Assembly: GCA_934654475.1 (NCBI GenBank)
Contig: CAKUFZ010000002.1
Location: 86 to 64,085, forward strand
Length of the DNA stretch: 64,000 bases
DNA from: an uncultured Coriobacteriales bacterium
GTDB taxonomy: Bacteria > Actinomycetota > Coriobacteriia > Coriobacteriales > UMGS124
Direction of reading: 5' to 3'
Shown here: positions 7,783-56,101 of the stretch, piece after piece
Layout of the letters: the number at the start of each line of letters is the position of its first letter
Numbering within the stretch: the stretch's first letter is position 1
Notes under the pieces: generated by a model
Told to the model about the DNA's origin: nothing
The model's database searches: none
Seen by the model: the letters and a program-made list of their open reading frames with translations, nothing else
Made by a program: the position numbers and the translations under genes

Positions 7783-7825
7783 AGTAACCCCTCGTGTGTC
7801 GTGGGTTCGTTGTATGGTTAACAGT

Positions 7826-8977: not shown

Positions 8978-8990
8978 GGCGATGCGCGGG

Positions 8991-9950: not shown

Positions 9951-10027
<77 letters not shown>

Positions 10028-37675: not shown

Positions 37676-37708
37676 GACAGCATCACCTTTCCCTTGTACT
37701 AGTGTGCC

Positions 37709-38317: not shown

Positions 38318-38952
38318 CCATGCTCCTGAGAGTAGATGACGAGCAGGTCTAGGTTGGCGCGCTCCACGTCGGTGAAGTTGGGCTCGGTCACGCCCTCGAT
38401 GGGTTGATACCAGGGTCGAGCGTCAAAATACGCGCGATACTTGCCGCCTGCGAAGGGATACCCATATCGTGCATACAGCTCGTTGATTGCCAGGGTTGTC
38501 GTGCGCTCGTCGAAACCCTCAATGTCGGCCCTGTCGAGATACACCCAGTTGGACGGTAGGATGTACCCTTCGGCCTGCGCCTGTGCAATCGCGTCACCAT
38601 TGGGCGTTGAGGTACTGACAATAGGAAGGGACGTATCTGCATTGGCATACTCGTCGGACACGTCTGAATACTGCGCGGTCTCATCCGAATAGGTCGGCTC
38701 TTCTTGAGTGCTTGAAACATCCGATTCGACCGACTCGCTCGAAACAGGTTCGTAACTGCCGTCTAAAAGGATGGAACCCAATACTTCGCTTGAAGCAAAC
38801 TGGTTGGACATGGGCGACAACAGAAACGCCAAAAACACCGCCCCGCCAAGAAGCCCGCCGAAAATCGCCAATCCCCCACTCGGAGTTTTGGGCACGTTGA
38901 AACTGTTCGCGTTGCCAGCCATAGTGGAGCCTCCATTGTTTGTGCGTGACAT
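38308..38952 (-). CDS. Membrane-anchored YARHG-domain protein
   Basis: 214 aa with one TM segment (LAIFGGLLGGAVFLAFLL) and an acidic S/E/T-rich linker. The C-terminal YARHG signature is YILPSNWVYLDRADIEGFDERTTTLAINELYARYGYPFAGGKYRAYFDARPWYQP. Confidence 0.7.
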   Translation of the reverse strand: MSRTNNGGSTMAGNANSFNVPKTPSGGLAIFGGLLGGAVFLAFLLSPMSNQFASSEVLGSILLDGSYEPVSSESVESDVSSTQEEPTYSDETAQYSDVSDEYANADTSLPIVSTSTPNGDAIAQAQAEGYILPSNWVYLDRADIEGFDERTTTLAINELYARYGYPFAGGKYRAYFDARPWYQPIEGVTEPNFTDVERANLDLLVIYSQEHGWR

Positions 38953-38963
38953 ATGTCCTCTCC

Positions 38964-41900: not shown

Positions 41901-42098
41901 ACCGATTGATGTATCGAAATCAATCGTATAGCTCATCTGTGTTGAAGCATTACTCACAACAACGGTTTGATTGGGGTCGGCCTCAAAACAAAAGCCCTCG
42001 TCTGCCAAGGCGGCCGTCTGGTTTGACTGCGCCGCAGTTGCTGAATAGCGCATCGCCGAGGTGCCAGACTGAACCATTGGGACGGTCTCAGATGCCAT
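38964..42098 (-). CDS. Giant Ser/Thr protein kinase with a large middle region and a polytopic C-terminal membrane domain
   Basis: The start is taken at the ATG at 42098, 8 nt after aaggag and 1 nt after the PP2C stop (the ORF track starts at 42140). The Hanks kinase motifs are IGSGGYARVFGA, YAAKI, HRDVKPSN, DFN (in place of DFG) and QPESDWYAFG. The C-terminal roughly 300 aa hold about 7-8 hydrophobic helices. Confidence 0.85.
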   Translation of the reverse strand: MASETVPMVQSGTSAMRYSATAAQSNQTAALADEGFCFEADPNQTVVVSNASTQMSYTIDFDTSIGSGGYARVFGARDNEGNEYAAKISLRDRDARHNSDYQRVIKELLDITGDPSNGGCQSTHLMPIYAFESKAINVQTSDRPGWHEELAYVAVMPICSRLDEKPLEKGYLKRCVISDAATALHFLHERNIVHRDVKPSNLFVYDGCVVLGDFNISSFVEGGAEGQKFGYTTTQRATVGYSIPGVPVQPESDWYAFGYTIWTLYNDGKHPYQSLIEANDQLALQRIALSGSRDVPFQPTSDEDKYLGRLIYGLTYRDHKKRLGFEAVMSWVDKPESITWVDPDDGETGWSYQFEGKTYTNFAELAEALSNNWSVALRQFSRGYISQSFVGDGQIDAADALDTYRNSSESSNLGLAKSIWYLSGNRYLLCWEGKDVSFTNLIANIDNPEVSKELLAKDLLASGLLSWAAEQQGSGVEAILSPWQTEDQLSDGKRYVIEKLRGIEKVAAQLDDGGDASFARLLFKNTFSANYTDSLTMCQNANKLFELCSSTPYRFYQTIASKDAYRSMLSVAYRFTDADSLLGMLKAYPNDSAPSDDLTRGHELLVLATEALCFFEGLVESKDVVREFYINYGPIGPWVWTARHADMYLRMAEGSSAPTRLHWSCDTITKGLGSSVAQMAHDGFEQTAHTCVQRIEANLEELPLRHYYGVSSEKNVTVSEDDGFFCARFYGETVPRGFVRDIFTASRRDMTGTAEWDGVCLVEASQGDSRDKNFEKIIMELQMRMREQCESKAGYLLGSILLLVAFAVCGTVMAPSLFEFLVLLGLPEGFDYVLAFGTFVSAVTYFAYASFYYLGRQRLSGKYRGLDKDLKQLSQTYNEDIRAYGEKTSPFYMRLADQNASLPVVSYGYSSTVALLDKNLHESQGLHNSGHWAMWGMSTILPMMLAGGLIALGVWEWIETSTSYSNRFATGMVIGFLLWLVGLWYANSKSWCGPHFWLAMVLLPPVFCLAAVFVILIVGGILTIAAGILALVLGIVVIVSLLDS

Positions 42099-42099
42099 C

Positions 42100-42900
42100 C
42101 TATGACTCCTTTTCATCGATTGGGGTCGAAATCTCGACAAGCATCACACTTATGTTGTCATCTGAACCGCCAACCAAAGCAGCATTAAACAGACTTACCG
42201 CCTTAGTCTGCAGGTCGACGTCGGCACCTTTGAGCATCTCTTCAATCAGCTGATCAGGCACGCCCTCGGTCAGACCGTCTGAGCAGAGGAGAAAGATGTC
42301 GTTTTCAAACACAGGCCATGCCTTTGAAATATCGACGATGTCCCACCCCGGGCCAAGTCCGAGTGCGCGCAGGATAACATGAGCTTGATTGGTTTGCGCC
42401 CACTCAATCTGCTCTTGAGGCGCATGGATGCTTTCGAGCTGTTGCACAACTGAATGGTCGCCCGTCTGCCGCGCAAGGAAACCGTTACGCATCCGATACA
42501 CGCGTGAATCCCCGGCGTGGAATGTAACGAATTCTCCCTTGGCAATCGCAATTCCAGCCGTGGTCGTTGCCATGGATGTCCCACACCTCCATGACGCGGA
42601 TGTCGCACTCATCTCGCGACTCGTCTGAGAGAGCACCGCGCAAGCCGCCTCGGCCAGACCCCGCGCATCACACCCGGCGTCGACTTCAAACCCCGCGAGA
42701 GCCTGAGCAGCGAGAGAAGATGCCTCGGCACCATGCCCTCCCGCGCTCACCCCGTCGAACACGGCCAGAAGGGTGGGTTCCTCGACCTCGATGCAGCACG
42801 ACCCTGAGGCAAGAACTCCCCCGCCTATGAAAAGCCTGTCTTCGTTCGTTGACTTCACCGCGCCTTTGTCGGTAACGGCGGCGACCTGTATCACAGCCAT
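42100..42900 (-). CDS. PP2C-family Ser/Thr protein phosphatase
   Basis: 266 aa with TDKGAVKSTNEDR, LAVFDGVSAGGHGAEAS, LCSDGLTEGV and GGSDDNISVMLVE. Confidence 0.88.
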   Translation of the reverse strand: MAVIQVAAVTDKGAVKSTNEDRLFIGGGVLASGSCCIEVEEPTLLAVFDGVSAGGHGAEASSLAAQALAGFEVDAGCDARGLAEAACAVLSQTSREMSATSASWRCGTSMATTTAGIAIAKGEFVTFHAGDSRVYRMRNGFLARQTGDHSVVQQLESIHAPQEQIEWAQTNQAHVILRALGLGPGWDIVDISKAWPVFENDIFLLCSDGLTEGVPDQLIEEMLKGADVDLQTKAVSLFNAALVGGSDDNISVMLVEISTPIDEKES

Positions 42901-44873
42901 GCGGAAGCTCCCGTCTCCGTGGAATACACAATATGCCCTCCCTGAGCAGAGGCGTAAATCGTCGCGCCCTGCGGCACTCGCATATCAAATAGGTACTCGG
43001 CAAGCGTGTTGAGGTATTCGGACTCGATGTAGTTGGCGATGCCTCGACCGCCCTTCTCTTTGACATCGGTGGAAAGCGAGGCCTGAACGATTTGGTCGAA
43101 GCAGGTCTGGTCAACCTCGACATGTACACCCTGCTGCTTGAATACGGCATGGTTGACCTGGTCGACTTTTTGGCGGGCAATGAGGGCAGCAGAGGCGTCG
43201 TCGATGTAGTCGAACACAACGACGTTGTTGCCGATGCGACCCAGAAACTCCGGCTTAAACGTCGCCTTCATCGCGGCCATTACTTTGTCGCGCACCGCAT
43301 CGTATGGCTCACCGGGACCGATAAGCGTCTGGTGGTCCACCACATGGCGACCCGACGCGTCATATACCTCGCGTGAGAAACCGATATTGCTCGTAAAGAA
43401 AATGAGCGTCTCGCTGAAATAGACCGTTGTGCCCTGCCCGTCGGTCATACGCCCGTCTTCCAATATTTGCAGGAACTTGTCCATGATGCTGGGAGAAGCC
43501 TTCTCCACCTCATCGAACAGCACGACTGAGAAGGGGTTTGCACGCACGGCGTTGGTCAGTTGACCGCCTTGCGAGTAGCCCACATACCCCGGCGGTGCAC
43601 CGAACAGCTTTTGGTCGGAATTGTCCCCCTGATACTCAGACATGTCGAAACGCAGACAGCTCCGCTCGTCGCCAAAAAGCATCTCAGTGACTGCTTTCAC
43701 TATCTCGGTCTTGCCGGTACCTGTTGGACCGCTGAGGAAGACGACGCCTTTAGGCTTGCCGCCGCCAGAATGCGTGGCCCCCGACAAACCCAAGACGGAT
43801 CGCTTGAGAACCGACACGACGGCATCGACGGCCTGGTCTTGCCCTTTGACTCGTCTACGAATGACATCTCCGGGGTCATGCTCGAGCTTCTCGAGCATCG
43901 TAGCCCACTTGTTTTCCTTGAGACCGTATTTATACACGTCAACCAGTGCAGCGAGATCGGAGGAACCCTGGGTATCGCGGCCGTGCATGCGCCTAAGCTC
44001 GTCAAGCTCCCGCAAGGTCATGGCGTCGGTCATGTCGACGAAACGCTCCGTTTCCGACTTCTCCCCTACGACGAAACCCTCGGTTGGCAGGCTGGGCGGA
44101 ATCATCGTCTGCACATAGAGCTCGCGCGTCGCCCTGTCAGGGTTGGGCACTGTGACAACACGCATGTTGGGATTGCCGTTTACAAACCAATCAGGCAGGT
44201 CATTGCGGCGGCTTGCAACCAGAATGAGGGTATTGCGATCGCTGGACGACCCATCGGGCGAACATACGCGCAAGGCATCGCTTGCCGCAACAAACAGGTT
44301 AGTGAAGAACGCCGTTTCGTCTGGGTCGAGATGCGAAGGCGAGGTGAGAACGCGCGACGCCATGTCGACGACAACGGCAACAGGTTTAGCGACCGGGTGG
44401 CCCGGCTTGTTTCCTCCCAGACGAGGGCCGCCTCCCCCGTCGAGCTGCAACGGGCTTGCAAGGAGCGCACGTATGAGGCGTGAGTCTTGAACAAGGTCGC
44501 TCACCTGGCTGGATTGCGTCTGACGGGCATGCCCAAACGAGTTGACCCTGTCGGATTCCGCCTGCATATCAGCCGCCGCACGGCCTGCTGCCGCAAGATA
44601 GCGCTCGACATCAGATTCCTGGAACATATTGGTGAAACGACGCAACGGGTCGTAATACACGAGCTGATACTCGCCCGATGCGGCATCCTCCGAAAAGACC
44701 GCATGGAGCAGCTCGTTGAGTGTCAAGAAGCCTGCCTGTGCCACGTCGTCAATCGCGTCGCCACCGTCCCAAACAGGATACAGGTCGTTGACGTTGCCCT
44801 CAAAGAGAAAGAGGCTCTTGATGCCCTTGAAGTTGCGCAGCTCGCGCTGCCACTGTTGCCTCTGAATGCTCAC
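42891..44873 (-). CDS. AAA+ ATPase with a ClpA/ClpB D2-like module and a degenerate N-terminal module
   Basis: 660 aa. The C-terminal half carries VKGQDQAV..FLSGPTGTGKTE (Walker A), VVLFDEVEKA (Walker B), PPGYVGY and FTSN. The N-terminal roughly 300 aa lack a P-loop. The GTG start overlaps the upstream stop (GTGA) and is preceded by gggagg. Confidence 0.75.
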   Translation of the reverse strand: MSIQRQQWQRELRNFKGIKSLFLFEGNVNDLYPVWDGGDAIDDVAQAGFLTLNELLHAVFSEDAASGEYQLVYYDPLRRFTNMFQESDVERYLAAAGRAAADMQAESDRVNSFGHARQTQSSQVSDLVQDSRLIRALLASPLQLDGGGGPRLGGNKPGHPVAKPVAVVVDMASRVLTSPSHLDPDETAFFTNLFVAASDALRVCSPDGSSSDRNTLILVASRRNDLPDWFVNGNPNMRVVTVPNPDRATRELYVQTMIPPSLPTEGFVVGEKSETERFVDMTDAMTLRELDELRRMHGRDTQGSSDLAALVDVYKYGLKENKWATMLEKLEHDPGDVIRRRVKGQDQAVDAVVSVLKRSVLGLSGATHSGGGKPKGVVFLSGPTGTGKTEIVKAVTEMLFGDERSCLRFDMSEYQGDNSDQKLFGAPPGYVGYSQGGQLTNAVRANPFSVVLFDEVEKASPSIMDKFLQILEDGRMTDGQGTTVYFSETLIFFTSNIGFSREVYDASGRHVVDHQTLIGPGEPYDAVRDKVMAAMKATFKPEFLGRIGNNVVVFDYIDDASAALIARQKVDQVNHAVFKQQGVHVEVDQTCFDQIVQASLSTDVKEKGGRGIANYIESEYLNTLAEYLFDMRVPQGATIYASAQGGHIVYSTETGASAWL

Positions 44874-45472
44874 ACTGCCTCCCTCGCATGCATGTCCGAC
44901 GGGCGGTCGTGGATTCCGACCGAGATTGCACGGTTCTCAAACACGAAGTTTTGGACCCATCGCCCCTGTCTCATGTACTCCGCATACTTCCGCCGCATCT
45001 TCTCGTTGAGGAAGTTGACGCGTTGGTTATCTGAACCGCGCAAGGCAAGCCCAGCCACGTTGCGCGCGGCGATATAGGGCCCGTCTATAAGAACGTCAAC
45101 GCATGTTCGCAGGCGTAGCCAATTCGCATGGGACAGACAGCGTTGAGCTTCTTCGAGCGTGTAGCCCGTATACAAAAGGACATCGTCATAGACGCTGCGG
45201 ACGGCCTCCAGGCAATCGAGGAGCTCGTCGGGTTGCTCAAGGGGGTCTCCGCCGGTGAGCGTAAGCTCGTGGCAACCATAGGACTCGCCGACATCCAGCA
45301 GGTAGCGAGCGAGGCCGCCCGGTGGCATTTCCTGCGCCTCGGTAGATGTCCACAGCTCGGGATTTGCGCACTCCGCACAACGCTTGGAACAGCCCGCCGT
45401 CCATATCACGGCGCGCCTCCCCGGCCCCAACGTCTCGACAGGGTAGAGAATCCTATCCACGCGCATCGTCAA
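44870..45472 (-). CDS. NrdG/PflA-like radical-SAM activating-enzyme homolog (orphan)
   Basis: 200 aa with ETLGPGRRAVIWTAGCSKRCAECANPELW (CX3CX2C directly before N-P-E-x-W) and LTLTGGDPLEQ, as in anaerobic RNR or glycyl-radical activases. No NrdD or glycyl-radical enzyme is in the window. Confidence 0.65.
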   Translation of the reverse strand: MTMRVDRILYPVETLGPGRRAVIWTAGCSKRCAECANPELWTSTEAQEMPPGGLARYLLDVGESYGCHELTLTGGDPLEQPDELLDCLEAVRSVYDDVLLYTGYTLEEAQRCLSHANWLRLRTCVDVLIDGPYIAARNVAGLALRGSDNQRVNFLNEKMRRKYAEYMRQGRWVQNFVFENRAISVGIHDRPSDMHAREAV

Positions 45473-46490
45473 ACTCTCCTTTGCGCCGCACGCCCCACAC
45501 GGGGCGCACGCGGGCTATGCGCCTCTTGTCCATAATGTCCACGCAACATGGGCAGGAAGCGAGCCGCGAGGACTCGCCCTCCACGAGAAAGCTGTGACCG
45601 CAGCCACCAGGTGGGCAATCGATGAACCAGCCTTCCACCAAATCCGACGCATCGGATTCAGAACCGCCGGAACAGGCCTCGACAGAAGACGGGTCCACAT
45701 TTGAACAAGCGGTTAGACCTTCATCAAAAGACGAGCCTGCACACGTAGCCAGTGCCGGAGCGTCGGACGCTTGTTCCCCATCGCCAGGTACAACCCGCTT
45801 TGAGGAAGAAGCATTGGCGGCCACACCCAAAGGCTGGATATGAATTCGAAACGAAATGTCGGCCATGCGGAGTGTATCGCCATCATGGATGGGAGAATCG
45901 AAGTCGCGACCAAGGTTGATGCTGCCGTTTGGTGTAAACAAGACGGAGGGGTTGCTGCCGGCATGCATGGCAGACCAGCCGGCGCCATAGGGCTTGAACA
46001 GCACATGGGTTCGGCTGATGTGCGCACAATCGGCAAGAACGTCAGACCCGAAGTCGCCTTCACGCCCGACAAAGCCGCCATGAGGACCGATTTCGATAAC
46101 AGCCCCTGTACTCAGCATTTCGAGAAAGAGCCTGGTCGGAGCATCGCTAGCACGCCCTTGGATCGAAGGCGAAGGCATCGGGCTGGAGGGCGAGAGCACT
46201 TGCCCAGCGCAAGGCGAGGGACGGGATGCCGGCTGAGGCGCCTCATGGGCTCCAGATGACGGGCTTTGGCAGGAAGCCAATGGTGGGCAATCCCAAACAG
46301 GTTCCAATGCCTCGGGCTTATATGGTTGAGACTGAAAACGAGGCTGGGATTGGCACTGGGAAACGGAACCCGGTCCAGATGGTTGCCCCGTGCCAGACGG
46401 GCTTTCTACCTGACGTTCGTTGGAACATACCAGGCAGATGTCTGCCCCATCCGGGTTTTCAGTACCGCAAAAAATGCACGTCCACGCCAT
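45453..46490 (-). CDS. FHA-domain protein flanked by N- and C-terminal zinc-ribbon-like motifs
   Basis: 345 aa with N-terminal WTCIFCGTENPDGADICLVCSNE and a P/S/Q-rich linker. The FHA core is FVGREGDFGSDVL..ISRTHVLF..GSNPSVLF. The C-terminus carries CPPGGCGHSF...CPCCVDIMD. Confidence 0.7.
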   Translation of the reverse strand: MAWTCIFCGTENPDGADICLVCSNERQVESPSGTGQPSGPGSVSQCQSQPRFQSQPYKPEALEPVWDCPPLASCQSPSSGAHEAPQPASRPSPCAGQVLSPSSPMPSPSIQGRASDAPTRLFLEMLSTGAVIEIGPHGGFVGREGDFGSDVLADCAHISRTHVLFKPYGAGWSAMHAGSNPSVLFTPNGSINLGRDFDSPIHDGDTLRMADISFRIHIQPLGVAANASSSKRVVPGDGEQASDAPALATCAGSSFDEGLTACSNVDPSSVEACSGGSESDASDLVEGWFIDCPPGGCGHSFLVEGESSRLASCPCCVDIMDKRRIARVRPVWGVRRKGEFDDARG

Positions 46491-46493
46491 GCC

Positions 46494-47915
46494 TTACTCC
46501 GCCTGCCTCTCGACAAGGTTTTCGTCTTCGTAAAAACCAGTCCTGCGACGGCCCCGTGCTGCCTGTGACGGAACAGTCGACTGACCGCAAGTTTGGAAAG
46601 ACACCGAGTTGGACTCGGAAGCGGGCTTATCAGCCGTCTTATTGAGAACAACTCCGTATTCGGCCAGCTCCTGTGACAGCTGCCCAAAGAGGGTGCAGAA
46701 CTGTTGCTGTTGCATCACAAGCTGACGTCTCTCCCACTCGCCTTGCGCAGCGACTCGTTCGATGACCATACCGTCGGGTCCCTCTGCCAAGCCTGGCCCA
46801 TACGAGGCGGTTTCCATCATCACGGCTCCTTGCTGTGGCGAGACGGCAACGTGAATCGCCGTGCCCTGGCTCTCATCGAGATATAGGGAGTGAGGAAATG
46901 CCCCCTGCGAATTAGCAAGGGAGGCAAGCTGAACCGAGCGTTTGACGTTATAGCCATGACGTGCCATCACCTCGTCGATTGCATGGGCGATATAGGCGTT
47001 TCGTGCCGCGCAATCCGCCTCTTTATACAAGGCGTCGCGAAGCTGAGAAAGCATATCGGCGTCTGTCATTTGCCAAAGAGGAGGCAGGTCCGTCGATTGC
47101 ATGTCGAGGGCGTCGCACCGAGCCTTCAAAGCACGGCACTCGTTGTATAGGTCCTCAACCAGCGCGACCTCTTTACTGAAATGGCTGATGAGGCTTTCCC
47201 CGATATTCAGCCTGCCTCGCATCTCTAGGAGGCGTTCCTCGGGATGGGCCGCATAAGCGTCAGCCGTCGCCTTGAGGTCGTCGACATATTTCATGAGAGC
47301 GGCAAGGTGACGCTCCGAAAGCGCGCCGCTCAAAGCAAGTTGTTGAAACGCCGCCCTCTGCTTGGATGCCCGATCGAGCAAGTCATTCAGTGGCTGCACA
47401 TCACCGGCCGATTCTTTGAGGTCCTGAAGACGCCGAAGGACGAGGTCGACGCTGCTCAGAAGTGGTGTGCATGGCTTAGTTTGCTTGACATCGAGGTTTT
47501 CGACGAACTCCATGGCCCTTTTTGTTCGGTCCTCCTGGCGCAAGTAAGCGCCCTCCGCATCGCGCATTCCAAAGGAGATGTCATCCACGCGCCGCCGAAA
47601 GTCGTCAAGCTCCCCGTTCAGCTTCTTTTCGAGCCAATCGTTGTACTCCACAGCCTCCATGACCTCATCGGGATACTTCTCTGATGCAAGACGCGCGAAC
47701 CGCGCCTCAAGTTGACTTGTCATAGAAACGCATCTTTGAAGTTCATTTTCTCCCCAAGCACCCATTGCCCCAGCACGGCGCATCACACCGTCCGCAATGT
47801 CATGAGCCTTGCGGCATGCGCCTTTGACAATCTTGGTATTGCGGTCACGTTGGGCCTGCAGCTGTGCCAGCCTGTATGACTCAATCTTCATCAACCCAGA
47901 TTTAGGACCGCTCAT
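46494..47915 (-). CDS. Hypothetical protein, first gene of the operon (helical N-terminal half, unknown family)
   Basis: 473-aa ORF that ends 3 nt before the next start. About 380 nt of non-coding DNA and a terminator lie upstream. I recognised no motif. Confidence 0.6.
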   Translation of the reverse strand: MSGPKSGLMKIESYRLAQLQAQRDRNTKIVKGACRKAHDIADGVMRRAGAMGAWGENELQRCVSMTSQLEARFARLASEKYPDEVMEAVEYNDWLEKKLNGELDDFRRRVDDISFGMRDAEGAYLRQEDRTKRAMEFVENLDVKQTKPCTPLLSSVDLVLRRLQDLKESAGDVQPLNDLLDRASKQRAAFQQLALSGALSERHLAALMKYVDDLKATADAYAAHPEERLLEMRGRLNIGESLISHFSKEVALVEDLYNECRALKARCDALDMQSTDLPPLWQMTDADMLSQLRDALYKEADCAARNAYIAHAIDEVMARHGYNVKRSVQLASLANSQGAFPHSLYLDESQGTAIHVAVSPQQGAVMMETASYGPGLAEGPDGMVIERVAAQGEWERRQLVMQQQQFCTLFGQLSQELAEYGVVLNKTADKPASESNSVSFQTCGQSTVPSQAARGRRRTGFYEDENLVERQAE

Positions 47916-48295
47916 GACAAGACCCTTTCATCAAACGGGCGCATCAGCAAAACTTCGTTGCCGTGCCCTTTTGTTTGCCAGGTGAATTGTCGTAGATGCG
48001 ACACGCATCAGAGTCTTACTTGCACAACAGGCATCCCAGATGTTCCAACCAGTCTAATCAAACCAGTTGCCGGAGAAACAAACACTTACACATGCTAACA
48101 GTCCTCAAAGAGACGCCAACTCTTCCAGACTTCTCACCGCCGCAACCTGAAGCTTATGTCCATAGCTCATCTACGGCCTACCGCCATATCCAACCACACG
48201 AGCACCAGGAATGGTACCTTGGGAGTCGGGCTGCATACATGTAATGAAGTCAGCAAAATGAGAGGCCCAATTACCCCGATGTCTTGGAATCAGGA

Positions 48296-48333
48296 AGAAA
48301 AAGGTTCCCCACGACGAAATCATAGGGAACCTT
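48296..48333 (-). terminator. Rho-independent terminator closing the radical-SAM peptide operon
   Basis: Stem aaggttccc (48301-48309) / gggaacctt (48325-48333) with a 15-nt loop. An A-run on the + strand (48298-48302) reads as a T-run after the hairpin on the minus strand. It lies about 75 nt past the 71-aa ORF stop. Confidence 0.65.
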
Positions 48334-48408
48334 TCAGATGGTTCCGCCACTCAGAATGAGCAAGAGTGACTGAGAACCGGCCGGACTGTCACCTAAAGCT
48401 TTGCGCCT

Positions 48409-48624
48409 TTAGTAAAACTTCAGATACTCCTGAATCTTTCTTGCAGCGGAGGCTTCTCCCTTACTCAGGGCGACAGAGATTGCGTCTTCAAGTGCCCGAC
48501 GGGCCACTGTGTCGCCTCTGGAATCATCACCGCATTCATCCGCCTTCAGGATGTAGTGCGAAACAAGATTCCATTCATCAGAGGTCAGCTTTCGTTCAAG
48601 CTCACTAGCAAGGCGCGAGTACAT
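48409..48624 (-). CDS. Small (71 aa) helical protein of unknown function, last gene of the peptide operon
   Basis: The ATG at 48624 is preceded by ggtgga, 6 nt upstream. The sequence is MYSRLASELERKLTSDEWNLVSHYILKADECGDD.... Confidence 0.5.
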   Translation of the reverse strand: MYSRLASELERKLTSDEWNLVSHYILKADECGDDSRGDTVARRALEDAISVALSKGEASAARKIQEYLKFY

Positions 48625-48659
48625 GTTTATCCACCGACCCTCTTCAATCTTGTCTGAGC

Positions 48660-48842
48660 TTATTTACCGACGCAATAGAGCATGCACTTGCTACCGCACG
48701 GCGTTCCGCCACCGGGAACAGAATAAGGCTGACAAATGGTGCTGCACGAGGCGAAACCACTCATTCCAAGCTGGCTAACCATTCCGTAGAAATGCCCAGC
48801 AGAGCCACACGTGCCGTAGGAAGCTTCACGAACGATTTCCAT
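48660..48842 (-). CDS. Candidate RiPP precursor peptide with six cysteines
   Basis: 60 aa from the ATG at 48842 (the ORF track uses the GTG at 48851); aggtg lies 6 nt upstream of the ATG. The sequence is MEIVREASYGTCGSAGHFYGMVSQLGMSGFASCSTICQPYSVPGGGTPCGSKCMLYCVGK. It starts 51 nt downstream of the SPASM maturase stop. Confidence 0.6.
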   Translation of the reverse strand: MEIVREASYGTCGSAGHFYGMVSQLGMSGFASCSTICQPYSVPGGGTPCGSKCMLYCVGK

Positions 48843-48893
48843 AATTTTCACCTTTCGAGCATGCCTTCGAATAAGACTTCTTTGCCGACCCGC

Positions 48894-50180
48894 TTATTCA
48901 CTCCTTTCATTGTGTCGCAGGTTGTCCATATATGAAACGGCATCAAAAACCGCATCATAGGTATAGCGAATGTAAGGACAACGACCATATCCAAAGCCCA
49001 TCGCTAGACCCGCATAGCATCCAGCTTGGCACGACGGAAGATACGAGCACTCCTCACATTCTTGTGGAAGGGCCGGATTTGCCCAGAAATCCATTGCGTC
49101 ATTGAACTCAACGCCTGTTTCCAGTGTCCCCACCAGGTCTCGTTTATCTCCAAGAAAATGATCGCATTTCGAAACGAAACCATCGGGGCCAATACAAAAG
49201 TTATTCAATCCTCTGGCACAGCATGAGGCGTTGTTAAAGTTTAAAGGCAAATCATTGACGCTTGTAATTAGGCCCGAATCAATCATGGCATGGAAAATAG
49301 ATTTGTATACCTCAGTCAATTCCTCTTTTTCAAAACAGGACTTGTCTCCAAGCGTACTGTACAGCGGGGCCACATGTGCCGAGAAAAGCTGCGAGTTGGC
49401 AAATCGTTTGCCGAGCATATGGATGAGTCGAAGAACAGAGGAGTGATTGTTTTTATCCGCGTTTATACGCACAGAAACCGCGATGCCTGCGTCAAGAAGG
49501 CAGTCTATACTGTCAAAAATAGAAGAGAGTGTGTAATCTCCACTCACATAGTTTTTTCGCTTCCCGTACTCACTCTCATCGCCGTCGAGAGAAATCTGTG
49601 CATTGCCCACATGGCATCTTTTGAGTAAATGCGCGATATCATCTGTTACAAGCGAGCCATTACTTATTATATCCGCCGTATAGCCAACTTCTCGTTGTTC
49701 CGCATTCTCAATTAGAGCCTCGGAGATTCGTTCGATAAAATCTGGTCGAAGCAGCGGTTCGCCGCCAAACCAAGTCACGTGTATATGCTTTGCGATTCCC
49801 ATATAACTGGAAATAAACTCGACGAGCTTCGGTTCCAAACTTTCAGGAAACGATTGGGACACAAAATCTTGCTCATAACAATAGGGGCACCGCGCATTGC
49901 AGGCAGTGGTGGGCAAAATCTGAAATGCAGCATTGTCCGTAGAGTAGTTATTCACATACCTAAGCGCTTTGACCTTGCCGAGTTCATTTGTTTCAACCGG
50001 AACAAGAAAGCCATTTTGAACAAAAGCCCCCGCTTCCTCTTGGGTCCACTGTCCTTTCTCAAAGCGTTCATAGCAAGCCGAGTCCAACTTGACAACAGCA
50101 GAAGACACCAGATTGAACATCAGGACTTGGTTTTCATTAATCCGACCAACATGGTTATAAAACGAGCGCTTGTAGTCCAT
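48894..50180 (-). CDS. Radical-SAM/SPASM-domain peptide maturase
   Basis: The radical-SAM cluster motif is TTACNARCPYCYEQ. The C-terminal SPASM-type cysteine pattern is CCARG..FCIGPDGFVSKCDH..CEECSYLPSCQAGCYAG..GRCPY. The start is taken at the ATG at 50180, preceded by gggaga; the ORF track uses the TTG at 50207. Confidence 0.8.
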   Translation of the reverse strand: MDYKRSFYNHVGRINENQVLMFNLVSSAVVKLDSACYERFEKGQWTQEEAGAFVQNGFLVPVETNELGKVKALRYVNNYSTDNAAFQILPTTACNARCPYCYEQDFVSQSFPESLEPKLVEFISSYMGIAKHIHVTWFGGEPLLRPDFIERISEALIENAEQREVGYTADIISNGSLVTDDIAHLLKRCHVGNAQISLDGDESEYGKRKNYVSGDYTLSSIFDSIDCLLDAGIAVSVRINADKNNHSSVLRLIHMLGKRFANSQLFSAHVAPLYSTLGDKSCFEKEELTEVYKSIFHAMIDSGLITSVNDLPLNFNNASCCARGLNNFCIGPDGFVSKCDHFLGDKRDLVGTLETGVEFNDAMDFWANPALPQECEECSYLPSCQAGCYAGLAMGFGYGRCPYIRYTYDAVFDAVSYMDNLRHNERSE

Positions 50181-50329
50181 TCTCTCTCCCGAAAACCATT
50201 CGGACAATTTTTCAAATATAGATTAGGCATTGTCAAACCCTTGCAACACCTCGCAACCGAAATGTCGCGTTTATGTTCCAAGTCGTTGGACATTGAAACT
50301 CGCGCACAATATGGCAATCAGGGACCTCA

Positions 50330-50364
50330 ACAAAAACGCCCTCTTCCAGATTGAGGAAGAGGGC
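50330..50364 (-). terminator. Rho-independent terminator after the 169-aa gene
   Basis: 10-bp stem gccctcttcc (50338-50347) / ggaagagggc (50355-50364) with a 7-nt loop, followed on the minus strand by gtttttgtt. Confidence 0.8.
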
Positions 50365-50438
50365 ATAACTTACAGACCCGACTTTGCAGCTTCTCGTTCC
50401 AAAATTGCCGTCCTTGCGACAGGACAACCCATGAGAAC

Positions 50439-50948
50439 CTATTCCCCACCCAAAAGTTCATCAATGGTCTCGTCGACGCACTGTCTTAGGCTGTCGTAGT
50501 ACATCTGCTCTTCTTCAACTTTTCCAGAATCCGTAGTGAGCCCAGTCACAGCTTTGCGAATCATGCCGCTAAGGCTAAAGCCGTCGGATTGATCCGCAAG
50601 GCGCGTACGTTGCATCCCCTTTGAAACGGCGCCGAGGCCAATACCATTGATTTCTACAACAGCAGCAATTTTGTTGAAACCTACGAGGAACCACGCATAG
50701 TCTGTACCCGGAAACGTGAACTTGACACCAGCCTGTTCCTTCTTTGACAGAAGACCCCCAGTCTCAATCAAGCCATACTCCGCCGCCACTTCGATGCCAC
50801 AGCCATCGCGCATTGCAGAGACTACTGCTTCACCCACCTCCTTGGCAACCATGCTCGGCTGGATGTTTGCTGCTCCCCTATAGCGCCTGGTAAGGAAAAG
50901 ATTGGGATGTTTCGAAAGCTGATCTTTGTAGGAAAATAGTACCGCCAT
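50439..50948 (-). CDS. Hypothetical 169-aa protein (monocistronic)
   Basis: The ORF has ggag 9 nt upstream of its ATG and its own terminator. I recognised no motif. Confidence 0.55.
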   Translation of the reverse strand: MAVLFSYKDQLSKHPNLFLTRRYRGAANIQPSMVAKEVGEAVVSAMRDGCGIEVAAEYGLIETGGLLSKKEQAGVKFTFPGTDYAWFLVGFNKIAAVVEINGIGLGAVSKGMQRTRLADQSDGFSLSGMIRKAVTGLTTDSGKVEEEQMYYDSLRQCVDETIDELLGGE

Positions 50949-51392
50949 TAGAGAACTCCAATCTTTAAACGTCCGATATTAGACTCCGCAAGTGTAGATA
51001 ACTTGAGTACCATCGTGTCATCTCCTTACCAAACGGTAGCTTTGATGTTCCAACCTGAAATTGCATGAATACGCCGCTTGAGACGTTGGATGATATGGAA
51101 GGCAATGAACAAGTCACTGGGACGGCCGGGTGGGGTCAGGGTATTGAGCGAAGTAATTGTTCCTCGTCAGCAGAAAACACAATGAATGACGGTCTACCTG
51201 CTATTATGATAAAAAGTTCATCATCTGCTAGGCAATTCAGGAACTCAAGCGGCACCCGTGCCGCCCATATTCTCAAACCCAGAAGTGTCCTCAGATCGCG
51301 TCACATGGATTTCCGGACAGGACACGGCAAAATATCCTGACGGCTCTTCCTGGCCAGTCTATTACCAGTATGAGAGAAATCGCAACGATGTG

Positions 51393-52124
51393 CTACCTGT
51401 CCATCGTTTGGGACAACCTGTTACGCCAGAAATTGTTGAATGAATCTTGTACTTGATGTCGGCGGCCTCGAGCAACCGGGATGACTGTTCCAGAGCTGAG
51501 ATGTACTGTATCTGAATTGAGGCCGACCACATGGCGAACATTGACGATAAAGCTTTTGTGGCATTGGACGAAAGAAGAGGGGAGCATCTTTACCGTGTCA
51601 GAGAGGCGCATGTATGAGCGGACAGTTTCACCGTTAATGAGATGGAACTCCACAATACGCTTCCAGCTTTCAACATATAGGATGTCAGTTGGTTTAACGA
51701 TACGATCTCCTTGGATGCTGTGAATCAGGAGAGGGCCGATACAGCGTTTCGCTGCATTATAAATCGCCTGGTCAATAATATGAAACAGCTCGTCATCACG
51801 AATGGGTTTCATGAGAAAGAACGAGTCCACGATGTTGCGAACGCGGCCGTACATGCCGCTATGACCTGTAACGTAAACAATCTGAGTGCCATGCTCAGAA
51901 AGCCGAGATTCTTTGACAATCGAAACACCATCGGCGTCGTCTTGCCCGAGACAGATGTCGCAAAAAAGGATATCGATTCCCGAAACACTTCTCAGGGAGT
52001 TCAGTTCCTCGGCACTCGCACATGTTGCGATTTCGAAATCATCGGCTTGAGGATGGCGCGATATGCGCTGCTTTAAATCTTCCGCCTGAAGAGAGTTGTC
52101 ATCGAGTATTGCCAGGCGGTACAA
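51393..52124 (-). CDS. LytTR-family response regulator (REC + LytTR DNA-binding domain)
   Basis: REC features are ILDDNS, ILFCDICL, VYVTGH and LMKPI. The LytTR domain is HLINGETVRSYMRLSDTVKMLPSSFVQCHKSFIVNVRHV. I prefer the TTG start at 52124, with gaagggga 7 nt upstream, which gives a typical 243-aa protein. The ORF-track ATG at 52271 would add 49 atypical residues. Confidence 0.8.
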   Translation of the reverse strand: MYRLAILDDNSLQAEDLKQRISRHPQADDFEIATCASAEELNSLRSVSGIDILFCDICLGQDDADGVSIVKESRLSEHGTQIVYVTGHSGMYGRVRNIVDSFFLMKPIRDDELFHIIDQAIYNAAKRCIGPLLIHSIQGDRIVKPTDILYVESWKRIVEFHLINGETVRSYMRLSDTVKMLPSSFVQCHKSFIVNVRHVVGLNSDTVHLSSGTVIPVARGRRHQVQDSFNNFWRNRLSQTMDR

Positions 52125-52214
52125 AACAGCATCCCCTTCATACGGAAACAGAATCAGAACAGAGCTAAAAAACTGCTGTAGTATAAGGATACTAGAGCAG
52201 GATTCGCCTTTTTC

Positions 52215-52225
52215 GGGGGGGGGGG
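52215..52225. repeat. G11 (C11 on the coding strand) homopolymer upstream of the LytTR regulator
   Basis: Counted directly: tttcgggggg gggggatttg gives 11 consecutive G at 52215-52225. Confidence 0.9.
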
Positions 52226-52229
52226 ATTT

Positions 52230-52259
52230 GTTCCGAACTGTAAGTTTGAGGTTCCGAAC
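52230..52259 (-). promoter_or_regulatory. Candidate LytTR-regulator binding site: two perfect 9-bp direct repeats with a 12-bp spacer
   Basis: gttccgaac occurs at 52230-52238 and again at 52251-52259 (GTTCGGAAC on the minus strand). The 21-bp periodicity places the pair immediately upstream of the C11 tract and the regulator gene. Confidence 0.5.
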
Positions 52260-52322
52260 AGCCATCAACAAGACTCATACCGTACAGAACTTCACGTCAC
52301 GCACATAAAAAGTCAACCAGCA

Positions 52323-53816
52323 CTATACCCTACTGATAAGAGCACCATTAGGCCGAACGCCCATAATGACAGCCTGAACAAGGCTTGGGCCATCGATTTG
52401 GTGCTCCCCCACCGGGATGACCACCTCGTGGTGGCTAGCCGTGGTGCCGCAGGCGTTGCCAGTGGCGTCGATCTGCTCAATAAGAACGGGCTCGACGGTC
52501 CCGATGCGGTGAGCAGCGTCGGCACGGCGCAGACGGTCGGCTAGGATGCGCAGGCGCTCAGAACGCTCGCGAATGACCTCGGGGGCGATTTGATCGGGCA
52601 TGCCGGCCGCCGGCGTGTCGGGGCGAGCCGAGAAGCGGAAGGCATGGATTTTGGAGAAAGCAGCCTTCTCGGAAAGCGCTAGGGTCTCCTGAAAGTCTTC
52701 CTCAGTCTCGCCGGGGAAGCCCACGATGATGTCAGTAGAAATGGCCGCTGAAGGCAGGGCTTCGCGGATGAGCGCCACCTTTTCCAGGAACTGTTCAGCA
52801 TTGTAACGGCGCCCCATGCGATGGAGCACACGGGTGGAACCAGCCTGCAGTGGCAGGTGGAAATGCGGCGCCACGCAGTCGGCATTGCGCGCGAACGCAG
52901 CCACAAGCTCAGGTGTGACCTCGGGCGGTTCGATGCTCGACGCACGCAGCAGTGCCCCGTGCTCACGAATAAGCGGCACCAGGCGCTCGATAAGGCCTGC
53001 CAGGTCAAGCGGCGCGCCCTGCTCGTCGACCGAGCAGTATCGTCCCAGGTTGATGCCCGTGAGATCCACTTCGAGCGCACCCTCGCTCAAAACCTGGCGC
53101 ACCTGCTTCTCTATGAGACTGTAGGGGGTTGAAAGCGACTTACCGCGAGCCCTCCACACGATGCAATACGTGCACTTGTTGTCACAGCCGTCCTGCACCT
53201 TCACACCTCGACGGGCGCGAAAGACAGCATGACCACCTGGGGTCGAGAGTGTGTCCTCAGTGCTCAGACAGTCCTCGGCGCTACGCGCCTGCGGAACTGC
53301 GCCTGAGGAAACACTCTCGACCCTTGCAAGGTCATCTTGCTGCATATATTGGAGAGACTCCTGCTGGGAGGGCGAGGATGCCTCATCGCGAGTTCCGCAG
53401 CCGCAAAGCGGCGAGGACTGTTTGAGCAGGGAGGTACCTAGGGGTTCCTTGGTTGCGCTCGCGTTCAATCTGCCCCATTCGCCCAGCGCGTCCTCCACCA
53501 GCACAAGCTTCGCGGGAAGCACGCGCACGTTGTCGCCAATCGCTTCGAGCTCGGCGGGGAACAGGTTTGCCACGCATCCCGTCACGGCAACAAGCGGGTG
53601 CTTGGGAAGGCTTGCGGCGCGGCGCACGGCTTTGCGCGTCTTGGCCTGGGCCTCGCCCGTTACAGCGCAGGTGTTGATGGCAATGATGTCGGCCTCGTCC
53701 TCAGCACACAAAACAGCGCCCGACTGGACGAAGGAGCTCTCCATCCAGTCGGACTCCACGCGATTGACGCGACAGCCTAGGTTGACGACGCAAACGTGCG
53801 GGGCAGTGCGCTCCAT
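52323..53816 (-). CDS. MiaB-like radical-SAM methylthiotransferase (MtaB-like) with an internal insertion
   Basis: 497 aa with an MTTase N-domain (VCVVNLGCRVNRVESD), a radical-SAM motif (CDNKCTYC) and a TRAM-like C-terminus. A roughly 90-aa S/Q/E-rich insert separates the N-domain from the radical-SAM core. Confidence 0.7.
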   Translation of the reverse strand: MERTAPHVCVVNLGCRVNRVESDWMESSFVQSGAVLCAEDEADIIAINTCAVTGEAQAKTRKAVRRAASLPKHPLVAVTGCVANLFPAELEAIGDNVRVLPAKLVLVEDALGEWGRLNASATKEPLGTSLLKQSSPLCGCGTRDEASSPSQQESLQYMQQDDLARVESVSSGAVPQARSAEDCLSTEDTLSTPGGHAVFRARRGVKVQDGCDNKCTYCIVWRARGKSLSTPYSLIEKQVRQVLSEGALEVDLTGINLGRYCSVDEQGAPLDLAGLIERLVPLIREHGALLRASSIEPPEVTPELVAAFARNADCVAPHFHLPLQAGSTRVLHRMGRRYNAEQFLEKVALIREALPSAAISTDIIVGFPGETEEDFQETLALSEKAAFSKIHAFRFSARPDTPAAGMPDQIAPEVIRERSERLRILADRLRRADAAHRIGTVEPVLIEQIDATGNACGTTASHHEVVIPVGEHQIDGPSLVQAVIMGVRPNGALISRV

Positions 53817-54937
53817 TAGGACAGAGCGTCCTTGATGCGCTGCCAGGGCGTGCGCTTCTTGTCTACCGTCTCATCCATGGTGTGAGCGAGCTTCTCGAGC
53901 AGTTCGCGCTGCTCGTCGGTCAGCGAGGTGGGCACGATGACGTCGACGTGGGCGATGAGGTCACCGCGGCCATCGCGACGCATGCGGGGCATACCCTTGC
54001 CGGAAACGCGCACGGTGTCGTCGAACTGGCAGCCCGCGGGCACCACGATCTCGACTTCCTCGTCGGGCATGACGCCGTCGACAACGACGGTGGTGCCCAG
54101 AGCGGCCTGGGCGATGCCGACCTCGACGCGCACGTGCAGGTCGTCGCCGGAGCGCTGGAAGGCCTCGTCGTCGGCCACGCGGACCGACACGATGAGGTCG
54201 CCGGAATGGGCGCCGCGAACGCCCGCCTCGCCAAAGCCGGGCACGCGCAGCTGCTGGCCGTCGGCGATGCCGGCGGGAACCTTCACGCTGACGCGCTCGC
54301 GATCGGGTGAGCGGCCCTGGCCGTCGCACTCAGGGCAGGGCTTGTCGATGGTCTTGCCTGAACCGTTGCAGTCGGGACACACCGAGCGGCTCTGCATATT
54401 GCCGAAGAACGTGCGCTGCTGCGTCACGACCTGGCCGGTACCATGGCAGTTGGGGCAGGTGGTTTCCTTGCCGCCCTCGGCGCAGCCCGAACCATTGCAC
54501 GACTTGCACGGCGACAGGCGGTTGTAGGAAATCTCCTTGGTGCAGCCAGTGGCCGCCTCCTGCAGGGTAATCAGAATAGAGGCACCCATGTCGCGGCCAT
54601 CGAGACGCACGCCGCGGCCCGACGCAGCAGAGCCCCCGAAGAAGGAGCTGAACAGGTCGGACATGTCGAAGCCGCCGCCAAAGATGTCGCTCATGTCGGG
54701 GCCGCCCTGGCCGTAGCCATCGACCGTGCCGTAGCGATCGTAGAACGCGCGCTTGTCGGAGTCGGACAGGACCGCGTAGGCCTCGTTGACCTCCTTGAAG
54801 CGAACCTCGGCATCGGGAGCCTTGTTGACGTCGGGGTGCATGGTGCGGGCCTTCTTGTGGAAGGCCTTGCGAATCGTCGCGTCGTCTGCGTCTCGGTCAA
54901 CACCGAGGATCGCGTAGTAGTCTTTGGTATCAGCCAT
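53816..54937 (-). CDS. dnaJ: Molecular chaperone DnaJ
   Basis: 373 aa with a J-domain ([15 protein letters not shown]), a G/F region and four CxxCxGxG repeats ([32 protein letters not shown]). Confidence 0.93.
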
Positions 54938-55012: not shown

Positions 55013-56101
55013 TCACCACATGCGACCGCATGAGACGAGCGGTACAAATATAACGTAGAGGAAAAGGCCCATGAGGAAGCCCACCAGGAAACGCTTGCCT
55101 GCGCGCTTGGCAAAGCTGCCACCCGTGCCCCTGGCAAACAGCGTGGGCGAGGCAAAGAACGCCACGAAGAGCAGCGGGAATGCCAAGAGGGACAGCACAT
55201 GCATGATGAGCTGCGAGAACAACGTGCATACGAGCACCGCGCACACCACGCCCAAGCCGGTGAAGAGCGCCTCCTGCTGCTGGGTGAGATGCTCGGAAGG
55301 CACCACAAACGAGGCCTTGAGGTCACCGGAGGCACCGCCGCACTTACCGGCATCGCCGGCGCCCGGCACGCGCACCTCGTCGCCGTCATGCGAGGCGGCA
55401 GGCACCTTGACCTCCACGGTGGAGCGGCCCTGACGCGTGCCCGTGCCATGGCACGAATGACAGGCATTCTTGATGATCTTGCCCGAACCCTGGCACACCG
55501 GGCACTGCATCGCGGTGGTGAAGAGACCCATCATGTCGACCTCGGCCTGACCCGAGCCATGGCAGGTGGGGCAAGTGATGGGCTCAGATCCAGCCTCGTA
55601 GCCCCTGCCGTGGCACTCCGGACAGCTCTCGAGATGCGAGTAGGCCACGCGCTTGGTGCAGCCCTTGCGGGCCTCGTCGCGGGTGAGTTCGAGCTGGATG
55701 GAACGCGTGGCACCCTGCTTGCGCGCATAAGGGGTGCCCTGCGGTGCGCGGCCTGCAGAGCTGTAGCCCGCGCCATAGGGGCCGCCCCACGACGTCCAGC
55801 CGCCGAAGGGGCTGTAGCCGCCCGACCAGGAACCCGCACCAGCGGGGCCCGACGCATACGGGTTCTGCGTGGTGAAACCACCGGCCTTCACGGCATCGTA
55901 GCGGGCCTTCTTGTCGGGATCCGACAGGGTGTCGTAAGCCTCGGAAACCTCTTTGAATCGCTCCTCGGCACCAGGCTCCTTGCACACGTCGGGGTGCATC
56001 GTGCGGGCCTTGGCGCGAAACGCCTTTTTGATGTCCTCGGGCGTAGCGTCCTTCGAAACGCCGAGTATGTCGTAGTAGTCCTTGTTGGAGGGGGTTGCCA
56101 A
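55013..56101 (-). CDS. DnaJ paralog with J-domain and zinc-finger repeats but a hydrophobic, membrane-anchor-like C-terminus
   Basis: 362 aa with a J-domain (DYYDILGV..MHPDV) and four zinc-finger repeats (CPECHGRG, CPTCHGSG, CPVCQGSG, CHSCHGTG). The last roughly 90 aa form three hydrophobic stretches (GLGVVCAVLVCTLFSQLIMHVLSLLAFPLLFVAFF..FLVGFLMGLFLYVIFVPLV) instead of the usual CTD II/dimerisation region. Confidence 0.75.
   Translation of the reverse strand: MATPSNKDYYDILGVSKDATPEDIKKAFRAKARTMHPDVCKEPGAEERFKEVSEAYDTLSDPDKKARYDAVKAGGFTTQNPYASGPAGAGSWSGGYSPFGGWTSWGGPYGAGYSSAGRAPQGTPYARKQGATRSIQLELTRDEARKGCTKRVAYSHLESCPECHGRGYEAGSEPITCPTCHGSGQAEVDMMGLFTTAMQCPVCQGSGKIIKNACHSCHGTGTRQGRSTVEVKVPAASHDGDEVRVPGAGDAGKCGGASGDLKASFVVPSEHLTQQQEALFTGLGVVCAVLVCTLFSQLIMHVLSLLAFPLLFVAFFASPTLFARGTGGSFAKRAGKRFLVGFLMGLFLYVIFVPLVSCGRMW

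Follow-up and report, generated by a model that had tools for sequence, protein, structure and literature searches.

A run of eleven cytosines (C11) in a 64-kb stretch of DNA from an uncultured Coriobacteriales bacterium (contig CAKUFZ010000002.1; this whole stretch is called the window here) lies between a perfect pair of 9-bp direct repeats and the putative core promoter of a gene encoding a response regulator with a receiver (REC) and a LytTR domain. By comparison of assemblies, the tract is genuinely hypermutable promoter DNA, with lengths from C9 to C14 across 16 assemblies of the lineage (window included). We lean toward the interpretation that it forms a hypermutable spacer between a LytTR-type autoregulatory box and the core promoter, where slippage would reset the promoter strength of the regulator gene. 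Under this scheme, the regulator would bind its own LytTR-type box, and the architecture and conservation of the site make positive autoregulation probable. Replication slippage would add or remove C's and so shift the bound activator relative to RNA polymerase, 1 bp at a time, in both distance and helical phase. By analogy with the C-stretch of Bordetella fim promoters, such a change of phase would reset the strength of the regulator's promoter, and self-feedback could amplify small changes in promoter geometry into high or low regulator states. Weaker boxes of the same type could pass the effect on to a gene for a 169-amino-acid (aa) protein and to a cassette with a radical SAM/SPASM peptide maturase. 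The analogy would make this a homopolymer-tuned, activator-dependent promoter, with an effect that could be either on/off or graded.

Strain-level copies of the locus were found by exact-protein look-ups via the regulator and its neighboring genes, which yielded 15 further same-lineage assemblies from gut metagenomes (with Hadza and Nepal among the cohorts); a flexible-length exact-pattern scan of metagenome contigs for the tract returned no match. The tract is C9 in three assemblies (L175, L176, and L177), C10 in two (L082 and L085), C11 in six (the window, L073, L076, L077, L081, and L173), C12 in three (L001, L002, and L075), and C14 in two that were read directly (L168 and L174), with further C14 contigs implied by the protein cluster members P0019 and P0021. 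The first-pass annotation of this DNA had regarded the tract as prone to slippage, and its length does differ among strains, even among those that are otherwise identical. The window, L002, L076, L077, L081, L082, and L085 have no single-nucleotide polymorphisms (SNPs) over up to ~6 kb around the tract and carry C11, C12, C11, C11, C11, C10, and C10, respectively, the tract being their sole variable position. C9 was agreed by three independent samples of one haplotype, and this reproducibility, together with the consistent C14, argues against random assembly error. Judging from these sequences, switching of the tract is not so fast as to erase the haplotype signal, and the tract has stayed pure in haplotypes with a 2–3% difference between their regulator genes. 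Contigs from sample ERR7738550 (L074 and L083) break on either side of the tract, a possible hint of mixed lengths within one population.

A more distant relative indicates how the tract may have arisen. The interval between the proximal repeat and GAATCCTG is 24 nt in the orthologous locus L004, the same as in the window at C11, and in L004 it holds an interrupted CCAACCCCCCCTC instead of a pure tract. This equal spacing suggests that the pure tract arose by loss of interruptions while the ancestral spacing stayed unchanged. C11 is both the commonest allele (6/16 assemblies) and the one with the ancestral spacing, and on these two grounds it is our best guess for the fully active state.

The repeats themselves have the arrangement expected of a LytTR site. 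Such sites consist of two imperfect direct repeats with the consensus [TA][AC][CA]GTTN[AG][TG], 12–13 bp apart, upstream of the -35 element (PMC5600425). The 9+12+9 geometry of the pair, which the first-pass annotation had recognized as LytTR-type, fits this published rule, and the pair is kept in orthologues. When the register is shifted by -3 nt, the proximal site (ACAGTTCGG) fits all 8 of the positions that the consensus specifies, and the distal site (GCTGTTCGG) fits 6 of them; the window holds 20 consensus matches in all, counting both strands. By our reading of the alignment, the orthologue sites match at about 5–6 of 8 positions. The repeat core specific to this family is YGGAAC, and a pair with this core and a 21-bp period stands upstream of every orthologue found (74%, 59%, 57%, and 56% identity). 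These pairs read GTTCGGAAC-N12-ACTTGGAAC in L004, CGTTGGAAC-N12-CGTTGGAAC in L003 and L170, CGTTGGAAC-N12-GGTTGGAAC in L169, CTTTGGAAC-N12-CGTTGGAAC in L088, and GTTTGGAAC-N12-ATACGGAAC in L171. All four orthologous lineages keep the 12-nt length of the spacer while its sequence differs, and the intergenic sequence around the pair is mostly unalignable between lineages. The orthologue family is small, comprising the window's own lineage (95–100% identity), one lineage at 73–74%, and a diverse lineage at 56–59%; in every member, the regulator gene comes after mtaB and has a direct repeat with a 12-nt spacer in front of it. Besides its pair, L004 (74% identity) has a third motif copy in complement-strand form (GTTCCGAAC, at 2276–2284), whose start is 32 bp upstream of that of the distal repeat. 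From this architecture and conservation, we infer that both GTTCGGAAC repeats constitute the regulator's own LytTR-type binding site.

How often would such features be expected by chance? The exact 9-mer GTTCGGAAC has only two sites in the window, both of them here, and nowhere else in the 64 kb is a 9-mer perfectly repeated in direct orientation at a 21-bp period. Taken alone, a repeat of this period is not significant: in simulations with a first-order Markov (Markov-1) model, 25% of windows hold at least one (mean of 0.38). Its weight comes instead from its position upstream of the window's only LytTR gene and from its conservation in orthologues. Apart from the tract (C11, or G11 on the opposite strand), no G/C run in the window exceeds 6; there are 39 runs of G5, 5 of G6, and none of G7–10. 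The Markov-1 model permits longer G/C runs than the window shows (mean maximum of 8.2); real run counts below this expectation suggest that the genome avoids long G/C runs and that C11 is an outlier.

By direct reading, the tract lies between the conserved repeats and all three -10 candidates, which at C11 are 35 nt (TAGTAT), 38 nt (TATCCT), and 44 nt (TATACT) from the proximal repeat. A scan for consensus sigma-70 promoters found none between the repeats and the start codon, so that the -10 candidates rest on TAnnnT-type matches only. The repeat-to-(-10) distances are inconsistent across lineages (about 31–44 nt) and thus do not fix the position of the -10. Variation among strains points to constraint on the upstream region: 133 nt around the repeats and the tract contain 4 variable sites among five haplotypes, as compared with 43 variable codons (33 synonymous-only and 10 amino-acid-changing) in the regulator gene of the same five. 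One haplotype, L073 (ERZ28614096), has its distal repeat changed to GTTCGGACC together with a change of TATACT to the consensus TATAAT, a double change that may have traded activator dependence for a stronger -10.

Pairs with the family core also occur downstream. We scanned the window for the core TYGGAAC with a period of exactly 21 and a cut-off of at least 12/14. Five pairs reach this score, of which one is the regulator's site read from the opposite strand and another is unrelated. The remaining three, all in minus-strand orientation, occupy the three intergenic regions of a low-G+C island, upstream of the regulator gene, the 169-aa gene, and the radical SAM/SPASM gene. The expectation for such pairs is 0.016 per 900 nt, and 0/3000 simulations reached two. 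The candidate second box, GGTTGGAAC-N12-GTTTGGTAA, is shared in conserved form by L168 and L169. In the window, it precedes the ATG of the 169-aa gene by 78 nt and TAATAT (50981–50976) by 44 nt, the latter distance being equal to that from repeat to TATACT at C11. Near the third pair, a ACTTGGAAC-N12-TTTCGGTTG block is conserved in an otherwise 82%-identical intergenic region, with a core score of just 11/14.

We weighed several other explanations for the tract and its length differences. The differences might be sequencing or assembly errors at a long homopolymer whose true length is invariant, given that homopolymers of at least 10 are error-prone, that several contigs have low coverage (3.9x and 7.6x), and that PCR stutter is a known artefact, noted for Bordetella tracts (PMC1891110). 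We consider this very improbable: the calls are reproducible and track haplotypes (C9 in its three samples, C14 in several contigs), they differ by up to 5 nt, well above a stutter of ±1, and the C7 of L004 and the lack of a tract in L003 represent real evolutionary change at this position. Harder still to credit is a coding role, in which a longer regulator isoform would begin at ATG 52265 and the tract, read as SPPPE, would act as a translational on/off frameshift switch. The first-pass annotation had offered this as its alternative, with an ATG at 52271; the codon there is TTG, and the first ATG of the long open reading frame (ORF) is at 52265. Both C11 and C14, which is C11 plus 3, leave the ORF open from 52271, and gene callers give products of 290, 291, and 308 aa. 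However, the conserved start is preceded by an in-frame stop at 24 nt in L003 and at 60 nt in L004, every lineage has its 243-aa start marked by a Shine-Dalgarno sequence (AAAGGGG(A/T), at the same place in all orthologues) and by the conserved N-terminus MYRLAILDD, and the lengths 9, 10, 11, 12, and 14 cover all three frames. In addition, 4/4 substitutions in the extension are non-synonymous, versus 33 synonymous and 10 non-synonymous among the variable codons of the gene (Fisher p = 0.006), as in non-coding evolution. We rejected the long ORF and its translational switch on these grounds, namely the orthologue stops, the indifference of tract length to frame, and the substitution pattern. 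Least probable of all is a tract within an mRNA leader, made by read-through from mtaB or from an upstream promoter, in which the C's would mask the G-rich Shine-Dalgarno sequence. No clear terminator follows mtaB (a search for intrinsic terminators there gave only a spurious match, the plus-strand G run itself), and the Shine-Dalgarno sequence is GGGG-rich. Nevertheless, the fold of the 158-nt leader is no stabler than shuffles (z = -1.19), the tract is unpaired in the predicted minimum-free-energy and centroid structures, and tract-less orthologues keep the same Shine-Dalgarno sequence. The leader idea was dropped on account of the non-significant fold and the unpaired tract.

Two more explanations concern the identity of the repeats and the effect of the tract. 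The repeats could be bound by another factor or be no protein-binding site for this regulator, which we judge improbable. Their 9-mer is nearly self-complementary (GTTC-G-GAAC, with 8/9 positions equal to its own reverse complement), a near-palindrome being expected for a dimeric helix-turn-helix protein, and by our own reading the orthologue sites fit the published LytTR consensus moderately. Yet the orthologues lose the palindromy (TTGGAAC, ACGGAAC) and keep the direct orientation and the 21-bp period typical of LytTR sites (PMC5600425), and the pair always accompanies the LytTR gene while the downstream genes change by lineage. The strongest rival, which we still regard as unlikely, holds that the repeats are a real regulator site and that the C tract is merely a mutational hot spot, in a promoter that tolerates ±2–3 bp, so that the polymorphism is neutral. 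C9–C14 all being found in strains with intact repeats and gene would fit such tolerance, as would the lack of the tract in 56–59% orthologues and the apparent variation of the repeat-to-(-10) distance among lineages. On the other hand, a neutral hot spot sits poorly with a genome that has no other G/C run longer than 6 in 64 kb and in which long runs are normally purged, with a pure tract that has persisted across diverged haplotypes, and with flanking non-coding DNA that is better conserved than synonymous sites. The exact match between the L004 and C11 spacings and the independent recurrence of like tracts at related regulators also speak against it. Several observations nonetheless count against our preferred interpretation of a hypermutable spacer that sets promoter strength. 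The lengths that coexist with intact repeats and gene span 5 bp, or about half a helical turn, and a strict on/off phasing model may be too simple. The tract is missing from the 56–59% orthologues and is thus not required for regulator function. The C9 (3 samples) and C14 (at least 4 contigs) haplotypes look stable, and these sequences suggest that the switching rate may be modest. A recognizable -35 is absent for all three -10 candidates, and no histidine kinase was found among the Pfam-scanned genes on either side of the regulator. The third pair to reach 12/14 (starting at 50402, upstream of the radical SAM/SPASM gene) is not conserved, and the second and third boxes are weak sequence matches of low confidence, leads rather than findings. 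Lastly, every tract length was read from short-read metagenome assemblies, in some cases with 4–8x coverage, and several samples share studies and may lack full independence.

One consequence of the variable tract can be read from public records. A protein cluster (P0001 and P0016–P0023) lists a single regulator gene as 243, 290, 291, 294, and 308 aa. Gene callers run into the upstream ORF when the length of the tract puts it in frame, and product length is therefore a proxy for tract state; on the sequences compared, the 290-, 291-, 294-, and 308-aa "proteins" are gene-caller artefacts that record the state of the tract.

The features of the locus are collected in Table 1. Direct reading bears out the first-pass coordinates of the repeats, the AAAT, the C11 tract, the hexamers, the ribosome-binding site, and the TTG at 52124, from which the tract is 90 nt upstream on the minus strand. 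Rfam and tRNA scans detected nothing near the locus, with only a tRNA-Pro at 9951–10027.

Table 1. Coordinates of the regulator locus and neighboring features in the window
Feature	Position	Strand	Remark
Stop codon of mtaB-like methylthiotransferase gene	52325-52323	minus	
Distal 9-bp repeat GTTCGGAAC, candidate LytTR half-site	52259-52251	minus	Direct reading
12-nt spacer CTCAAACTTACA	52250-52239	minus	Direct reading
Proximal 9-bp repeat GTTCGGAAC, candidate LytTR half-site	52238-52230	minus	Direct reading
AAAT	52229-52226	minus	
Homopolymeric C tract, C11 in the window	52225-52215	minus	Direct reading
Further sequence (20 nt) between C11 and TAGTAT	52214-52195	minus	
Block of three overlapping -10-like hexamers	52194-52180	minus	
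-10-like hexamer TAGTAT	52194-52189	minus	
-10-like hexamer TATCCT	52191-52186	minus	Aligns with TATCAT of L004
-10-like hexamer TATACT	52185-52180	minus	Reads TATAAT in L073
Shine-Dalgarno sequence GAAGGGGA	52139-52132	minus	7 nt ahead of start codon
TTG start codon of regulator gene	52124-52122	minus	
REC+LytTR response-regulator gene, orphan, 243 aa, TTG start	51393-52124	minus	Pfam
Candidate second box GGTTGGAAC-N12-GTTTGGTAA	51055-51026	minus	Low confidence
169-aa protein gene, function unassigned, first downstream of regulator	50439-50948	minus	
Candidate third box ACTTGGAAC-N12-TTTCGGTTG, upstream of radical SAM/SPASM gene	50283-50254	minus	Low confidence
Radical SAM/SPASM peptide-maturase-like gene, 428 aa from ATG 50180	48894-50180	minus	Pfam Radical_SAM

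The assignment of the regulator to the REC+LytTR class is based on Pfam matches to PF00072 (8.8e-9) and PF04397 (4.2e-16), and gene callers give a 243-aa product in other assemblies. As we read it, the receiver sequence has retained the usual acidic pocket, the phospho-acceptor Asp in ILFCD, the Thr, and the Lys-Pro. PF14501 kinases adjoin the regulator in distant homologues. Upstream, the gene order is lepA-dus-hemW-like-dnaJ-dnaJ-mtaB, the two DnaJ paralogues being in tandem on the minus strand (53816–54937 and 55013–56101), the second with what we read as a long hydrophobic C-terminal extension. The regulator gene is at the edge of an island of 46–49% G+C in a backbone of 62–65%. We considered the repeats and tract as an integration boundary of this island and rejected the idea; in no lineage do the regulator and its box stand anywhere but after mtaB, and a SNP-free exchanged segment runs past the repeats and tract into mtaB, to about 53064. 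This segment (~47200–53064 of the window, i.e., the island plus ~740 nt of 3' mtaB) shows 0 SNPs in 5042 nt against contig L001, while further upstream L001 differs by 59 SNPs in 5400 nt (1–2% difference in the upstream genes), the nearest at 53064. The comparison indicates a recent horizontal exchange or a sweep of the island segment between strains.

Genes downstream of the regulator differ between lineages. The window carries the 169-aa gene and the radical SAM/SPASM gene (48894–51393), L003 a 604-aa protein and an LRR/Big_2 protein (6937–9911), L170 a 1964-aa M23/Fn3-associated surface protein (2055–4662), and L171 a 220-aa protein with no assigned function (2294–2956); the hybrid L169 resembles L003 in its upstream region and the window in its downstream 169-aa gene. 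The 169-aa gene accompanies the regulator in all contigs of the window's own lineage (lineage A), and its product has no Pfam or NCBIfam match. The radical SAM/SPASM protein matches NCBIfam radical SAM/SPASM maturase families for ribosomally synthesized and post-translationally modified peptides (RiPPs) at E values of about 1e-47, below the family cut-offs. A 21-aa ORF (MVLKLSTLAESNIGRLKIGVL) on the minus strand at 50948–51013 has a strong AAGGAG Shine-Dalgarno sequence and a stop that overlaps the ATG of the 169-aa gene. Its stop is lost in L168 and its substitutions are non-synonymous; the DNA block is nevertheless highly conserved, and the ORF may not be coding. Farther away, a minus-strand block of lower G+C (34082–47915) encodes an FtsK/SpoIIIE-family protein of 1197 aa, DedA/VTT and YARHG-domain proteins, a 1058-aa Ser/Thr kinase (no other kinase turned up in the scanned genes), a PP2C phosphatase, a ClpB-like AAA protein, and a small radical-SAM activase-like protein. 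It also encodes a 345-aa protein with a weak sub-threshold DUF7577 match and a 473-aa protein with no match, and the block may be a secretion or conflict system.

We surveyed ±6 kb around distant LytTR homologues at 43 genome loci and 62 metagenome loci. The genome loci contain 21 G/C runs of at least 8, all of them poly-G on the sense strand of the regulator and all in Coriobacteriia; the Firmicutes homologue loci among the 43 have zero runs of this length. At these loci, the 300 bp immediately before the regulator make up 2.9% of the bases and hold 11 of the 21 runs (binomial 4e-12, for loci that are phylogenetically non-independent); at the metagenome loci, 13/14 runs are in the corresponding interval. 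Orientation differs from that in the window, where the tract is poly-C. Cryptobacterium-like genomes have the tract 4–6 nt before the ATG (ctaaatttttgc[Gn]cactATG), with n ranging from 9 to 12 between samples, Eggerthella sinensis has G11 10 nt upstream of TATAAT, and L023 has a 21-bp-period repeat followed by 14 nt, G9, 9 nt, and TATATA. Other tracts are inside an ORF for an AgrC-type kinase or at the 5' end of a gene for a large LRR/SLH surface protein. Lengths of poly-G vary between orthologous Coriobacteriia loci.

Runs of G9–G14 near distant LytTR homologues (Eggerthellaceae and other Coriobacteriia) were seen in L010 (5934–5944), L023, L017, L026–L030, L112–L118, L121, L122, L125, L126, and L130, and also in L005 (4951–4962 and 7015–7028), L018 (7777–7786), and L015 (2894–2902, 5737–5746, and 8689–8698). 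A tandem 46-bp unit (tgcagccttattttgccaggccagtaggttttgttct) is found upstream of a LytTR-domain gene in L044 (5349–5407), with G9 and G13 preceding its copies.

The enrichment of poly-G at LytTR modules is provisional, and its recurrence in Eggerthellaceae suggests a phenomenon wider than the window locus. We raise, as a tentative possibility that falls short of being probable, that AgrA-like LytTR signaling modules of Coriobacteriia have acquired hypermutable G/C tracts in their control regions time and again, with quorum-sensing-type circuits and their cargo being stochastically switched within gut populations. If this is true, it would amount to a class-wide strategy of phase-variable regulators, with RiPP-like cassettes and large surface proteins as cargo and the window locus as one instance, distinguished by the coupling of the tract to an autoregulatory LytTR box; such a habit is not described in the literature that we searched. 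Mucosal pathogens (Neisseria, Campylobacter, Haemophilus, and Bordetella, for example) have been well mapped for phase variation, unlike gut Actinobacteria, which are abundant and mostly uncultured and for which such mapping has hardly begun. What is new here is that the setting is a commensal gut actinobacterium and a probable LytTR autoregulatory box, along with the hint of a class-wide habit. Should tract length set the level of the regulator, strains identical in SNPs could differ in peptide production or signaling, with consequences for the strain-level reading of metagenomes, and assemblers and gene callers would be recording tract states as artefactual protein variants.

Literature searches combining LytTR with homopolymeric tracts and phase variation, or Eggerthella, Coriobacteriia, and Collinsella with homopolymers or phase variation, returned nothing relevant. 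The nearest likeness is to the C-stretch of Bordetella fim promoters, which sits between the activator site and the -10. Like fim2, fim3, and fimX of Bordetella pertussis and B. bronchiseptica, which have a promoter poly-C of ~10–18 nt at a response-regulator-activated gene, the window locus has its poly-C between a putative response-regulator site and the -10 candidates. Among Bordetella isolates, the fim2 tract ranges from 10 to 15 and the fim3 tract from 13 to 18, and length correlates with transcript level (PMC1891110); a one-C deletion in the fim3 promoter is described in one report as switching a phenotype (PMC10172299). In contrast to the LytTR protein here, the Bordetella activator BvgA is of the NarL/FixJ helix-turn-helix type and has a fim box, and its targets are fimbrial subunit genes instead of the regulator's own gene. 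The fim tracts belong to a Gram-negative pathogen in which their function is demonstrated, whereas the function of the tract in this uncultured gut actinobacterium is inferred. The resemblance is best described as an analogy of mechanism, not membership.

LytTR boxes of the AgrA/ComE type often precede the regulator's own operon. The sites of AgrA (agr P2/P3), ComE, PlnC/PlnD, BlpR, VirR, and FsrA likewise consist of paired 9-bp direct repeats 12–13 bp apart (PMC5600425). Those promoters have no described homopolymer, their regulators adjoin AgrC/ComD-type kinases whereas the regulator here is an orphan, and the half-site here is nnTYGGAAC, near-palindromic in the window's lineage. Another gut-commensal actinobacterium with a slipping G/C homopolymer is Bifidobacterium breve UCC2003, for which replication slippage in poly-G at sortase-pilus clusters is reported to yield ON/OFF subpopulations (PMC9187656); the abstract of that report describes a switch of pilus clusters, unlike the window locus, and mentions neither a regulator-promoter tract nor a LytTR box (PMC9187656). 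A homopolymer that makes a master regulator, and hence its regulon, stochastic has a parallel in tracts within regulator genes. Campylobacter flgS/flgR and Staphylococcus aureus agrA/agrC are phase-variable via coding tracts. Bordetella bvgS (PMC1891110) and the poly-G of Klebsiella rmpA (10.1101/2025.09.12.675794) are further coding examples. Such tracts are in the reading frame and act by frameshift, whereas the C tract of the window is non-coding and would affect the initiation of transcription.

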